From a virus, in IMG/VR virus record IMGVR_UViG_3300042893_001849: a DNA stretch of 64,000 bases; one strand, written 5' to 3'. Under the pieces are notes generated by a model, which searched no databases, was not told the origin of the DNA, and saw only the letters and a program-made list of their open reading frames with translations. The position numbers were made by a program, and so were the translations under genes. Shown piece by piece: positions 10,740 through 60,758 of this stretch; positions within the stretch are counted from its first letter, which is position 1; every line of letters begins with the position of its first letter.

Positions 10740-11342
10740 ATGGTCGAAAATAAATTAAAAGAAAGCCCTAAAGTTTTAGGATTAGATGTTTCTACTCGAA
10801 CAATCGGAGTAGCTTTGTTTGATATTCAAGATAAAATATTATTAGAATTAACCCATATATCACCAGTTCCAAAACCAAAAGTTGAGAATAAGATTGAAGA
10901 ACTAATTTTAAAAAGTAATATTTTTAGAGAAAAACTTAGAGGATATGTTGGTATGGGAATTACCAGTGTAGTTATCGAAGAGCCACTTCTAAACTCAAAC
11001 AACGTATATACAGTTGGAACCTTAATGAGGTTTAATACTTTAGTATGTAAAGAAGTTTATGAAATATTAGGAGTTGTGCCTGAATTCATTTCAACATATA
11101 ACTCAAGAAAATTTGCATTCCCACACCTAGTTCAATCAAATGACAAAGGAAAACACGTTTTATTTGGAGGTCTACCAAAAGATATAGATAAAAAAGTTAT
11201 TATATGGGAATTGGTTGCAAAAAAAGAACCACAAATTATTTGGCAATACACCAAAAACAACACACTCAAGAAAGAAAACTTTGACCAATCTGATGCCTAT
11301 TGTGCAGCCCTTGGTTATATGAAGATGAAAGAAATTTGGTAA
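10740..11342 (+). CDS. RuvC-like Holliday junction resolvase.
   Basis: VLGLDVSTRTIGVALFD (catalytic Asp motif I), VIEEPLL (Glu) and a C-terminal DQSDAYCAALGY (DxxDAxxxAL motif). Confidence 0.55.
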   Translation: MVENKLKESPKVLGLDVSTRTIGVALFDIQDKILLELTHISPVPKPKVENKIEELILKSNIFREKLRGYVGMGITSVVIEEPLLNSNNVYTVGTLMRFNTLVCKEVYEILGVVPEFISTYNSRKFAFPHLVQSNDKGKHVLFGGLPKDIDKKVIIWELVAKKEPQIIWQYTKNNTLKKENFDQSDAYCAALGYMKMKEIW

Positions 11343-11370
11343 ATCCAAACCTTTTCACTATCTTTGTGGT

Positions 11371-51834: not shown

Positions 51835-52257
51835 ATGGAAAACAAAAGACACGTCGGTGTGATGGTAAAATGTGGGGACAAAATTCTTCTATGTAAGAGA
51901 AACAGCCAAGGTTCAAACCCTGGTATGTGGTCAATCCCTGGTGGTAAAATGGAAGATAATGGGGAAACACCTCAAGAAGGAGCAAAGAGAGAGTTTTTAG
52001 AAGAGACTGATGTAAATATTAATGACAAAGAACTTCAGTTCATTGGGCTTATTCCAAGACATACCAGAGATGGTAAGAAAGTTAAAGGAATAATGTATGT
52101 GTATTTATTAGAAGTAGAGGAACCAATCATTCCTGATTTGGTTAATGCTATTGACGGTGAAGAACACACTGACTCTGGATACTTTACTTTAGATGAAATT
52201 AAACCTGAGACTTCGGGAGATTACTTCCACAGACTCGCAGAAATTATATTAAAATGA
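51835..52257 (+). CDS. NUDIX hydrolase.
   Basis: GGKMEDNGETPQEGAKREFLEETDV Nudix box. Confidence 0.8.
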   Translation: MENKRHVGVMVKCGDKILLCKRNSQGSNPGMWSIPGGKMEDNGETPQEGAKREFLEETDVNINDKELQFIGLIPRHTRDGKKVKGIMYVYLLEVEEPIIPDLVNAIDGEEHTDSGYFTLDEIKPETSGDYFHRLAEIILK

Positions 52258-52450
52258 TTACATTAATTGGATTAGCGATATTAGTATTTGTCGGGATAGT
52301 TGGTACTATCAGTATGAATCGTCAAATCAAAAAAATTGTTGACAAACTTGACTAACTAATAAAAGTTTATTATACTTTGTAAACAATGGATATATTTATA
52401 TATTCCTGTCCGAAAGGACGAACACCCCAAAACGTTTCACGTTAAAAAGA

Positions 52451-52482
52451 TTTGATTGAATGAGAATTTATTCTTATCTTTG
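52451..52482 (+). promoter_or_regulatory. Bacteroidota-type sigma-A promoter (TTTG, 20 nt spacer, TATCTTTG) driving a short hairpin RNA.
   Basis: TTTG at 52451-52454 and TATCTTTG at 52475-52482. Confidence 0.5.
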
Positions 52483-52487
52483 TGAGA

Positions 52488-52555
52488 CAACACATCCCAC
52501 GAGAATATTGTTTGAGAAAACTTTTGAATCGTGGGATTTTTTAACTAAGTTCTTT
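52488..52555 (+). ncRNA. Candidate small RNA (about 65 nt) ending in an intrinsic terminator.
   Basis: Perfect 9-bp stem ATCCCACGA/TCGTGGGAT (52494-52502 / 52539-52547) followed by T6, immediately downstream of the promoter and with no ORF. Confidence 0.4.
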
Positions 52556-52650
52556 AACATTAAAATATTGATTACACCCGCTGGTACAACCAGCGCATGA
52601 CGTGGATAGGTGACCGTGGGGAAGTGGGAAGTAATCTTTTGAAATTATAT

Positions 52651-52722
52651 CGCGAGGTAGAGCAGTGGTAGCTCGGAAGGCTCATAACCTTTAGGTCGGT
52701 GGTTCGAATCCATCCTTCGCAA
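52651..52722 (+). tRNA. tRNA-Met (anticodon CAT), initiator-like.
   Basis: Hand-folded cloverleaf: acceptor CGCGAGG/CTTCGCA with a C1:A72 mismatch, D arm GAGC-AGTGGTA-GCTC, anticodon arm GAAGG-CTCATAA-CCTTT, and T arm GGTGG-TTCGAAT-CCATC. No CCA is encoded. Confidence 0.7.
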
Positions 52723-52754
52723 CAAAAAATAGTTTAACTATTTTTCATAAAGAA

Positions 52755-52786
52755 TTTGATTAATTGAAAAGTTATTCATATCTTTG
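52755..52786 (+). promoter_or_regulatory. Bacteroidota-type promoter (TTTG, 20 nt spacer, TATCTTTG).
   Basis: TTTG at 52755-52758 and TATCTTTG at 52779-52786. No ORF downstream. Confidence 0.5.
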
Positions 52787-52792
52787 TAAAAC

Positions 52793-52985
52793 AATTGGGA
52801 GAGGTTGACCGTAGGTTCGTAAAATCGAGGTTCCCTACCCAAAACAAACTTTCAGGTAAAACTGATTGTTTCTTTGACAAACAGACGAATTAGCCCGTCC
52901 TATTGAGAGTAGGGGGTCAACAAGATAGTTAGATGATACTATCAAGGAAGAATGAATTCGTTAAAATCATCAGTCAAAAAAAAGT
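52793..52985 (+). ncRNA. Candidate structured non-coding RNA (about 190 nt).
   Basis: GC-enriched relative to the flanks, with mutually complementary segments (GGGAGAGGTTGACC...GGGGGTCAAC; CCCTACCC...GAGTAGGGGG). No ORF. Lies between two promoters. Confidence 0.35.
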
Positions 52986-52995
52986 TTTATAAAAA

Positions 52996-53027
52996 TTTGA
53001 TTGTTTCCCAAAACATTCTTATCTTTG
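52996..53027 (+). promoter_or_regulatory. Bacteroidota-type promoter (TTTG, 20 nt spacer, TATCTTTG).
   Basis: TTTG at 52996-52999 and TATCTTTG at 53020-53027. Confidence 0.5.
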
Positions 53028-53032
53028 TAAAA

Positions 53033-54036
53033 CAAATGAAGGAGAGGGGTTGTAAATGTTCCTACTTCGGTGGGTCGTAAAGATTCCTTTCTCCTTCATT
53101 AATTTTGAATACGTTCTTTGAATATAAAATATTTTCTTGAAACATGTTGATGATGAGACCTTCGGGTTGATTCTGAGATAGAAATAAAGAAATTGGGCGG
53201 TCTATAGTCCATAAAATAAACCATGAAAGTGGTATAAAGTGACTTGTTCTTGATTGGAACGGTTGCGGCTTTGGTAACGGAGCTCGAGTAGACAAACGAG
53301 ATATTATTTGACCTTGAGTATTGAGGGTAACACTTTAGGGAAAGTGGTCGAATAATCAAGCGATGTGGGTCGTTTGGTTGAGGAGGGAACTCCGATAAGA
53401 ATAACTCGTAGAACTGTTGTGAGAAGTATGGTTATCCGACTATATAATTGCGGGGTTCAATATTAGAGTAGACTTAAAACCGAAAGGTAAGAGTTCGTAC
53501 AGGTGGTGCTGTTGTTCTCCTTACTCTTCACCTACCAAGGTAGGAGTTATGAAGTAGACTTGAAATATGGAGGTCGGGAGACTTCAAGGTGTAGTTCAGT
53601 ATTGTCTCGTTCAAAAGATGGGACAGCTGGTTTGACGGACCGCTACATCTATCATCCACAAATCAAACTTTTACTTTCAATGGTGAAAACTAAAAACTAA
53701 AAGGAAAAGTGTTCGTCAGTCGTGGTAGACAGGTCACTACTTAGTCATGAGTTGTTCATGGCCGTAAAGGGTCCCAAACCCGATACGATTGTTTTGAAAG
53801 TTCTCTAATCCCGCAAGGATGAGTTTGGGTGGCAACCTAGAAGAGTGATGAGTAAGAATAGAGTATATTACGACTTAAGGATTGGTTAATCTAATTGACC
53901 GTGACTGAGAGGTACTTCTCAAAAGGAAGTGGAAATCGGAGGAATCAAAATAATCTCCTGTAAAGTCTCTCATTGAAAGGTGTATTCTCAACCTGAATGC
54001 CAAACTAACCCTGACGTTTCTACGTCGGGGTTTTTT
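53033..54036 (+). ncRNA. Candidate large structured non-coding RNA (about 1 kb), class unknown.
   Basis: About 1 kb without a credible ORF in an otherwise gene-dense genome, and GC-enriched. Begins with an 11-bp stem (AATGAAGGAGA/TCTCCTTCATT) that encloses a UUCG-type tetraloop hairpin. More C(UUCG)G and GAAA-loop hairpins follow. The GAGTAGAC motif recurs at 53285, 53465 and 53552. The region ends at a strong terminator. Confidence 0.4.
54008..54036 (+). terminator. Rho-independent terminator.
   Basis: CCCTGACG-TTTCTA-CGTCGGGG hairpin followed by T6. Confidence 0.65.
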
Positions 54037-54091
54037 ATTTGGTAAATTCCCCAAATAGTCCTATCTTTGATATTCAACAAAACCAAAATAT

Positions 54092-54631
54092 ATGTTTGAC
54101 AAACTAATTGACCTCGTAGTAACCTTTATTCATGACATTCTTCCATTTAAAATTGTGGACCAATGGGAAATGGGGGTTCATCTTAAGACGGGTAGATTTC
54201 ATCGTGTCGTTTCTCCTGGATTAAATTGGAAGGTTCCATTTTTTGATAAGATTTGGGTTACACCTGTCATAACGCAAACCGTTAATTTGAGTCCTCAAAC
54301 TCTTACTACATTAGACGAACGTTCAGTGGTTCTAACTTCAATAGTTAGGTACCATGTTGTTAATGTTCATAGTTTCTTATTGAATGTAATGCATGCTAAT
54401 GACGTATTAGTAGATATGACTCAAGGTATTATTCGTGATATTGTTGAGACTACTAATTGGGATGATTTAGTTGACCTAACAAACATTGTTACTCCTGCGG
54501 TGAATGATGAAGTTGCTAAATGGGGGATTTTAGTTGAAGCTGTTAAGTTCCCTGATTTAGGTGAAATAAAAACATATCGTTTAATTACAGACTCTGGAAA
54601 TAAAAATCCAGGACAATTAATATTAGAATAA
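54092..54631 (+). CDS. SPFH/band-7 (prohibitin-like) domain protein.
   Basis: WEMGVHLKTGRF...GLNWKVPFFDKI...VRYHVVNVHSF follows the SPFH pattern (GLHF.IPF.D...VD.R...VVYRV.D). TATCTTTG box at 54062-54069. Confidence 0.5.
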   Translation: MFDKLIDLVVTFIHDILPFKIVDQWEMGVHLKTGRFHRVVSPGLNWKVPFFDKIWVTPVITQTVNLSPQTLTTLDERSVVLTSIVRYHVVNVHSFLLNVMHANDVLVDMTQGIIRDIVETTNWDDLVDLTNIVTPAVNDEVAKWGILVEAVKFPDLGEIKTYRLITDSGNKNPGQLILE

Positions 54632-60681: not shown

Positions 60682-60758
60682 TAGAACCCTCAATTTGATT
60701 GGGGGTTTTTTATTTCTTATCTTTGTAGAAAATAAACTTAAGATTTAAAAATATTATT

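Follow-up and report, generated by a model that had tools for sequence, protein, structure and literature searches.

Positions 52380–54060 of the virus record IMGVR_UViG_3300042893_001849, a 64,000-nucleotide (nt) stretch that we analyzed whole and call the window, are a cluster of phage non-coding RNAs: an initiator-type tRNA-Met, a full-length GOLLD RNA and two smaller conserved structured RNAs, here named element X and element Y (Table 1). The best explanation of this island as a whole, and one that is very probably right, is a phage-borne set of translation-associated non-coding RNAs in which X with tRNA-Met, Y, and GOLLD stand under three promoters. A first-pass annotation of the same DNA had proposed structured phage RNAs here, one of them about 1 kb long, and that proposal is supported by the full-length GOLLD match and the covariation described below. 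The GOLLD class and the tRNA are already known. X, a candidate new phage RNA motif, possibly lies outside current catalogues; the same can be said more weakly of Y, for which the evidence is thinner than for X, and of a recurring leader module, whose support is likewise weaker.

The GOLLD RNA and its relatives

Scanning the whole window with cmscan against Rfam 15 gave exactly two matches above the gathering score, the tRNA and GOLLD. The GOLLD match (RF02032) spans model positions 1–416 of 416, with no non-canonical pair flagged, and takes in every helix of the conserved 3′ domain as well as its long-range pairing. GOLLD was among the classes that the first-pass annotation had named for a search of Rfam, and the match is unambiguous and full-length; ROOL, which it had also named, does not appear at its gathering score. 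ROOL, HEARO, RNase P, transfer-messenger RNA (tmRNA), 6S RNA, group I and II introns and self-cleaving ribozymes gave no Rfam match between 52300 and 54100 at E ≤ 10, with the sole exception of a 12.4-bit Hairpin-meta2 line over the terminator (gathering score 210). The other weak matches in this interval scored 11–24 bits, far under their gathering scores.

The Rfam model covers the 3′ domain of GOLLD, and 5′ domains are less conserved than it (PMC12286853). Searches with blastn and nhmmer link 53140–53586 to sequences lying directly 5′ of Rfam-confirmed GOLLD 3′ domains, in the huge uncultured phages LR745206 and LR756502 and in IMG/VR contigs. A scan of viral contigs with the 15-mer CAGGTGGTGCTGTTG returned mostly chance matches, and just 10 of the 120 loci had a GOLLD after an nhmmer filter. 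When 25 diverse sequences, including the window and the marine GOLLD env-38, were folded together with RNAalifold, 79 of the 109 pairs predicted in the 5′ domain proved compensatory, which supplies the covariation among homologs that the first-pass annotation had proposed to look for.

Env-38 comes from a marine metagenome and was seen by cryo-electron microscopy as a 14-mer nanocage with D7 symmetry and a disordered internal linker; it is located 3′ of a Met-tRNA, and for other GOLLDs expression is reported to increase during lysis (PMC12286853). We took its sequence from the Supplementary Table 4 that accompanies Kretsch et al. 2025 (PMC12286853). It can be aligned over its full length with 53192–53994 of the window, through both the 5′ and the 3′ domain, at ~74% identity, a figure that is approximate because the sequence recovered from the PDF is 816 nt long and not ~835 nt. 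The env-38 construct starts exactly where conservation starts in the window, at UGGGCGGUCUAUAGUCC. Both RNAs lie 3′ of a tRNA-Met, the core of the window’s GOLLD beginning 470 nt downstream of it, and in both the first 3′-domain hairpin is followed by an A-rich linker; in the window this linker is at ~53655–53705 and varies among relatives.

By its Rfam match, alignment and covariation, then, the RNA of about 1 kb is a GOLLD of the same subtype as env-38, and it thus falls into three parts: leader, GOLLD core and terminator. The leader of ~160 nt (53032–53193) contains a conserved hairpin and a facultative one that is missing from three relatives (L012, L109 and L094), the core takes up ~800 nt (53194–53994), and the primary transcript from promoter P3 is predicted at ~1005 nt. 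What the first-pass annotation had called a 1-kb RNA is thus a GOLLD, a class that it had mentioned but had not been able to assign by eye, and its extent is actually that of a ~160-nt leader plus a ~800-nt core. The smaller motifs that it had pointed out are also there, namely the UUCG and GAAA loops and the recurring GAGTAGAC, with copies at 53288 and 53467; AGTAGAC is found at 53553. The locus offers a complete and well-delimited unit, from promoter through leader and core to terminator, of a GOLLD subtype whose structure has been solved. Compared with env-38, the window adds the surroundings of the RNA (its own putative promoter, the leader, the terminator, X and Y).

Very few natural RNAs are known to build a cage without protein, and GOLLD is among them. 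ROOL, which is likewise large, ornate, phage-borne and located near tRNA islands, forms an RNA-only 8-mer nanocage; it resembles the window’s GOLLD in context and in being of the cage-forming kind, but the two are unrelated in sequence and fold. Weinberg and colleagues (Weinberg et al., in 2009) are said to have reported GOLLD RNA in a Lactobacillus brevis prophage. GOLLD also occurs in Mycobacterium tRNA arrays, reportedly described by Morgado et al. 2020. The window shares with these GOLLDs the 3′ domain, a location in a phage or prophage and adjoining tRNAs, but differs from them in its 5′ domain, which is of the env-38 type known from viral contigs of environmental origin, and its Bacteroidota-type promoters suggest that the host phylum differs as well.

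Table 1. Features of the RNA island and its flanks, in window coordinates
Feature	Position	Strand	Basis or remark
NUDIX hydrolase gene	51835–52257		island flank
Putative promoter P1, TTTG-N20-TATCTTTG, Bacteroidota −33/−7 type	52451–52482	+	exact module; conserved in relatives
Leader hairpin 1: 9-bp stem AUCCCACGA/UCGUGGGAU, loop with conserved UUGAGRA, run of U5–6	52494–52542	+	fold z = −3.2
Leader motif GUUCUUUAA	52549–52557	+	recurs after P2 and P3 hairpins; conserved in relatives
Element X, structured RNA	52570–52636	+	5′ of tRNA-Met; core 52588–52607
tRNA-Met (CAU), initiator-like	52651–52723	+	ARAGORN; Rfam 62.5 bits
Weak A/U hairpin and U-run, possible terminator	52725–52745	+	sequence reading
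Putative promoter P2	52755–52786	+	exact module; kept in 8/8 covering relatives
P2 leader: hairpins 52795–52842 and 52846–52871 (GUAAAA loop), then UGUUUCUUUGA	52795–52871	+	fold, alignment; first hairpin an insertion shared with L025-type loci only
Element Y, small conserved RNA	52884–52962	+	between tRNA-Met and GOLLD
Putative promoter P3, upstream of GOLLD	52996–53027	+	exact module; kept in 9/9 relatives
GOLLD leader hairpin with 15-bp outer stem, symmetric internal loop (GUAAA) and inner stem capped by UUCG	53035–53100	+	z = −3.7
GOLLD 5′ domain, env-38 type	53194–53586	+	env-38 alignment, covariation
GOLLD conserved 3′ domain	53587–53994	+	RF02032, 328.9 bits (gathering 150), E = 1.8e-93
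Intrinsic terminator of GOLLD transcript, 11-bp stem and U-run	54007–54037	+	z = −6.4
SPFH/Band_7 protein gene	54092–54631		island flank, behind fourth promoter copy

Elements X and Y

No other small piece of the island is as well conserved as X, which had not been singled out in the first-pass annotation. In the window it is laid out as a closing stem P1 (GAUUAC.CCCGC/GUGGG..GUAAUC), a stem P2 (GGU/ACC) and a hairpin P3 with an invariant CAUGA loop, and its consensus is a variable closing stem, a covarying P2, and an invariant P3 hairpin and internal loop, AACCAG-N-GCAUGAC-N′-UGGAU(A)GGYG. Of 45 distinct instances, all 45 have A:U, C:G or U:A as the one variable pair of P3 (CCA-G-NG/CN′UGG). 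In P2, both inner pairs are canonical throughout (100%) and each comes in four or five pair types, against ~50% canonical pairing in shuffles. In 30 sequences aligned by MAFFT, pairing is seen in 95.8% of cells (76.6% when shuffled), the covariation score is 0.457 (0.107 when shuffled), and slid controls reach 14–43% pairing. Since the outer stems of X and Y vary in length and cannot be aligned by MAFFT and RNAalifold, they were tested by the duplex energy of matched and mismatched flanks. The P1 stem of X, 7–19 bp long and of unrelated sequence in different classes, gave −12.8 kcal/mol for matched flanks and −7.0 for mismatched ones. A covariance model built for X scores the window at 59 bits and true X elements at 56–62 bits, and nothing else exceeds 15 bits in 0.93 Mb.

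The exact core AACCAG-N-GCAUGAC-N′-UGGAU is present in at least 118 IMG/VR viral contigs of 1–321 kb (L012, L025, L050, L124, L126 and L147 are among the loci that bear X). In 185,579 bacterial and archaeal genomes the core pattern has 12 matches, 11 of which we set aside as chance, as they lie within coding sequence and have non-complementary N and N′. The twelfth is on an 11.9-kb contig with the same phage-like island. This contig (L247; CAZGIL010000023.1), from a ‘Candidatus Woesearchaeota archaeon’ metagenome-assembled genome, has the arrangement X – tRNA-Met – Y together with Bacteroidota-type promoters and is probably a phage contig mis-binned into the archaeal genome. X was not found among 50,697 GenBank phage records. 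The only weak match there lies at 713–747 of MT835501.1, from a human faecal ‘Bacteriophage sp.’ (hit H45; 83% over 35 nt, E = 0.2), and this gut phage may carry a diverged form of X.

No Rfam 15 family covers X in the window (E ≤ 10) or in 12 diverse X loci (E ≤ 0.5), and a full-text search, by core sequence and through papers on GOLLD, ROOL and tRNA motifs, found no published description of it. Two more specific identities were considered and dropped. HDV-like, hammerhead, twister, pistol and hatchet ribozymes have P1/P2 topologies or core sequences that by eye are absent from X, and no Rfam match points to them; pairing of the X loop with GUCAUG of the GOLLD 3′ domain was rejected because neither env-38 nor L001 conserves that segment.

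X keeps company with tRNA-Met, tRNA arrays, tmRNA and GOLLD. GOLLD is also present at 59 of 122 X loci, which are often truncated, and X is not in the GOLLD loci L001, L002 and L016. On jumbo-phage contigs of 100–320 kb (L147, L130, L161 and L175) the order on one strand is tmRNA – tRNA-Met – GOLLD – X – terminator, followed by 13–24 tRNAs. At nine loci (including L141, L145, L149, L209, L219 and L228) a truncated tRNA-Met (...ATTGTGAGGTATTTTTTTGG) stands 3′ of X and gives way to unrelated sequence, as if part of the island had been deleted.

As to its role, X is probably a cis-acting processing or attenuation element or else a small RNA that is stable and belongs to the same pathway. One specific version, which we think unlikely, makes X a cis-regulatory attenuator or riboswitch-like aptamer, in which the P1 stem (for example with a bound ligand, tRNA or protein) and a following U-run would terminate transcription before the tRNA or tRNAs. 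A tRNA begins 23–40 nt past the core in 60 of 122 instances, 47 times a tRNA-Met (CAU); X also heads tRNA arrays, a U-run stands directly 3′ of the P1 stem in many instances (L012, L109, L126, L130, L161 and L175), and the invariant internal and terminal loops are like those of an aptamer. However, X lies between two tRNAs without a U-run in L124, L132 and L197, its tail in the window is only CUUUUG, and no alternative antiterminator pairing was identified.

A second version, similarly doubtful in our view, takes X to be an element for processing tRNA precursors, whether self-cleaving or guiding an RNase, or a stable small RNA that pairs or dimerizes through the invariant self-complementary CAUG of its loop. 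The spacing to tRNAs is what speaks for processing: where there is an upstream tRNA (25 of 122 instances), the X core begins 10–31 nt past its end in all 25, X itself starts within a few nt of the tRNA 3′ end in the arrays read at this junction (L124, L128, L132, L138, L197 and L125), and the next tRNA follows at the short distance given above. The lack of a match between X and any Rfam family, ribozyme families included, speaks against it. For pairing, the loop 5′-CAUGA-3′ holds the palindrome CAUG and could, speculatively, base-pair with UCAU in the anticodon loop of tRNA-Met, and small phage RNAs are able to form oligomers (bioRxiv 10.64898/2026.07.01.735769).

Our fuller proposal, on which we are evenly divided, is that X is an undescribed, phage-specific class of structured RNA of ~60–90 nt from the translation RNA islands of uncultured phages, acting as a processing or attenuation element or as a partner of GOLLD and tRNA, with Y as a second, narrower motif. 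If X is truly undescribed, a widespread and phage-restricted RNA motif would be added to the catalogue. The tRNA cluster of phage T4 encodes small stable RNAs, species 1 and 2 (rnaC and rnaD), which are short, structured and co-transcribed with the tRNAs. They serve here as an analogy only, as short structured RNAs within a phage tRNA cluster, and we claim no kinship between them and X.

Y consists of a closing stem ACGAAUU/AAUUCGU around an invariant hairpin CCCGUCCUAUUGAGAGUAGGGGGU (52894–52917), a variable hairpin and a conserved GAAU. The hairpin pattern CCYGUCC.AUU...AGU.GG.GGU recurs in 33 IMG/VR contigs, and in every one it lies between tRNA-Met and GOLLD. Ten pairs are predicted in this hairpin, one with a U:A to C:G compensation, and the sequence of the closing stem differs between classes. 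Rfam 15 has no match over Y in the window at E ≤ 10.

Putative promoters, leaders and proposed expression of the island

The module TTTG-N20-TATCTTTG has six copies in the window, all on the plus strand, where 0.01 would be expected. A −33 TTTG and a −7 TAnnTTTG make up the Bacteroidota promoter type, so the copies are putative promoters and the phage appears to infect a Bacteroidota host. The three copies within the island have their TATCTTTG boxes at 52475, 52779 and 53020, exactly where the first-pass annotation had placed three perfect promoter modules. P2 is absent from L139, L213 and L238, in which Y is directly 3′ of the tRNA. We also considered GUUCUUUG as the −33 element of an additional promoter and rejected it, as no TAnnTTTG lies at the proper distance.

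Each of the three payloads, X, Y and GOLLD, is preceded by the same leader module, a hairpin followed by GUUCUUURA (52494–52557, 52846–52880 and 53035–53121); GTTCTTTRA occurs 12 times in the window, with 3.35 expected. The first of the hairpins had been annotated as a perfect 9-bp stem with a U-run terminator. The stem is real and covaries in relatives (GUCCCACAAG/CUUGUGGGAC), but whether it terminates transcription is uncertain, as L012 and L109 replace it with UUUGGUA/UACCGAA, keeping the loop motif and lacking the U-run; we take it for a conserved leader element and not clearly a terminator. The GOLLD leader hairpin, which had been described as an 11-bp closing stem at 53033–53100, is also real and shows compensatory changes in relatives, with an outer stem that is longer, at 15 bp. 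In L139, L213 and L238 the hairpin and GUUCUUURA join the tRNA to the next RNA without a promoter, and the module is therefore a feature at the RNA level, and transcripts may overlap; it is possibly a processing signal.

A strong terminator had been said to close the stretch, and this was confirmed (54007–54032 stem, then a U-run), with compensatory changes in L055 and L109. The site after the tRNA is occupied in relatives by the weak A/U hairpin seen in the window or by a larger structured element. The relatives keep the three promoters, the leader hairpins and the terminator, with compensatory changes. An insertion of ~60 nt at 52797–52855, present in the window and in L025-type loci only, resembles the GOLLD leader hairpin (53048–53090) and the post-tRNA element of L055 and L097, with GGUUGA...GUCGUAAAAUCGAGGUUCC in common, and looks like a duplicated or mobile hairpin module.

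ARAGORN and Rfam both give one tRNA-Met in the stretch, as the first-pass annotation had it. In the Rfam alignment its first acceptor pair, C1×A72, is flagged as non-canonical, and its D-stem GAGC/GCUC provides an A11:U24 pair. A 1:72 mismatch and A11:U24 are hallmarks of bacterial initiator tRNA. The tRNA-Met of Cellulophaga phage phi4:1 is 83% identical to that of the window, and the phi4:1 tRNA array has no X.

These elements suggest how the island might work. Three Bacteroidota-type promoters would each drive a short leader (hairpin and GUUCUUURA) and then a payload RNA: P1 would give X and then the initiator-type tRNA-Met, P2 would give Y, and P3 would give GOLLD, ended by the intrinsic terminator. 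GOLLD would be produced in lytic infection, trimmed away from its leader and, by analogy with env-38, assemble by itself into a protein-free D7 14-mer nanocage with the A-rich linker turned inward. Its context, with tRNA arrays and tmRNA, would fit a part for GOLLD and the phage initiator tRNA in the takeover or protection of translation. The env-38-type GOLLD moves in a conserved module with the initiator-type tRNA-Met and two more conserved RNAs, and this suggests that GOLLD and phage initiator tRNA, tRNA arrays and tmRNA act in one pathway. The module thereby offers a handle on GOLLD function, with X and Y as new candidate partners.

An alternative, possible though on balance we would bet against it, is a single polycistronic precursor from P1, in which an RNase would cut at the hairpin and GUUCUUURA to free X, the tRNA, Y and GOLLD, and P2 and P3 would merely boost expression. 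The module stands 5′ of every payload, whether or not there is a promoter, and in L139, L213 and L238 Y follows the tRNA with a hairpin and AGUUCUUUGAA and no promoter; the hairpin after the tRNA is weak, and Y has no terminator 3′ of it. Set against this, P2 and P3 are exact promoter modules, P2 kept in 8/8 covering relatives and P3 in 9/9, and U-runs follow both leader hairpin 1 and the post-tRNA hairpin.

Some points count against our preferred account of three promoters with separate payloads. The transcription starts, the processing and the oligomerization are all things that we infer. By inspection no intrinsic terminator follows Y, and read-through may therefore make the three ‘transcripts’ overlap. 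Bacterial initiator anticodon stems typically have three G:C pairs in a row (29:41, 30:40 and 31:39); the tRNA-Met has G30:C40 and G31:C39 but A29:U41, two of the three, so its initiator identity is likely but not complete. The Bacteroidota host is deduced from promoter type only, and the identity with env-38 is, as said, approximate.

Coding potential, relatives and flanks

The first-pass annotation had seen no credible open reading frame (ORF) in the island, which our analysis bears out. The longest in 52380–54060, on both strands, are 86, 77 and 65 aa, with further ones of 59 and 46 aa, and none of these five is preserved in an alignment of eight related viral contigs. Four of the five have 1–5 in-frame stops in every covering relative, the 77-aa ORF is open in L050 and L012 only and has stops in the other six, and aligned ORF lengths in the relatives are often not multiples of three. 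A conserved coding signal, looked for in these eight contigs, is not present. That the region encodes small proteins and its RNA structure is incidental therefore has next to no chance of being right: ORFs of such lengths do exist, but they are not kept in relatives, which already refutes the idea, and the 328.9-bit covariance-model score and the pervasive compensatory pair changes speak for RNA. The island had also been called visibly richer in GC than its surroundings, and GC content is indeed raised, but modestly (0.36–0.415, against 0.30–0.35 in the flanks).

Proteins of the window match phage families. Neither a megablast search of GenBank phages with 20 kb of the window, which returned no match, nor a tblastn search with its SbcC-like protein, which found only distant huge phages at 22–25% identity, turned up a cultured relative in the phage collection. 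The order X – tRNA-Met – Y – GOLLD recurs in related viral contigs, and eight IMG/VR viral contigs carry the flanking NUDIX gene and the island in identical order. Outside the island, further exact copies of the promoter module lie on the plus strand at 11335–11366, 54038–54069 and 60694–60725; the second of these, just beyond the island’s end, shares nucleotides with the U-run of the GOLLD terminator and stands 5′ of the SPFH/Band_7 gene.

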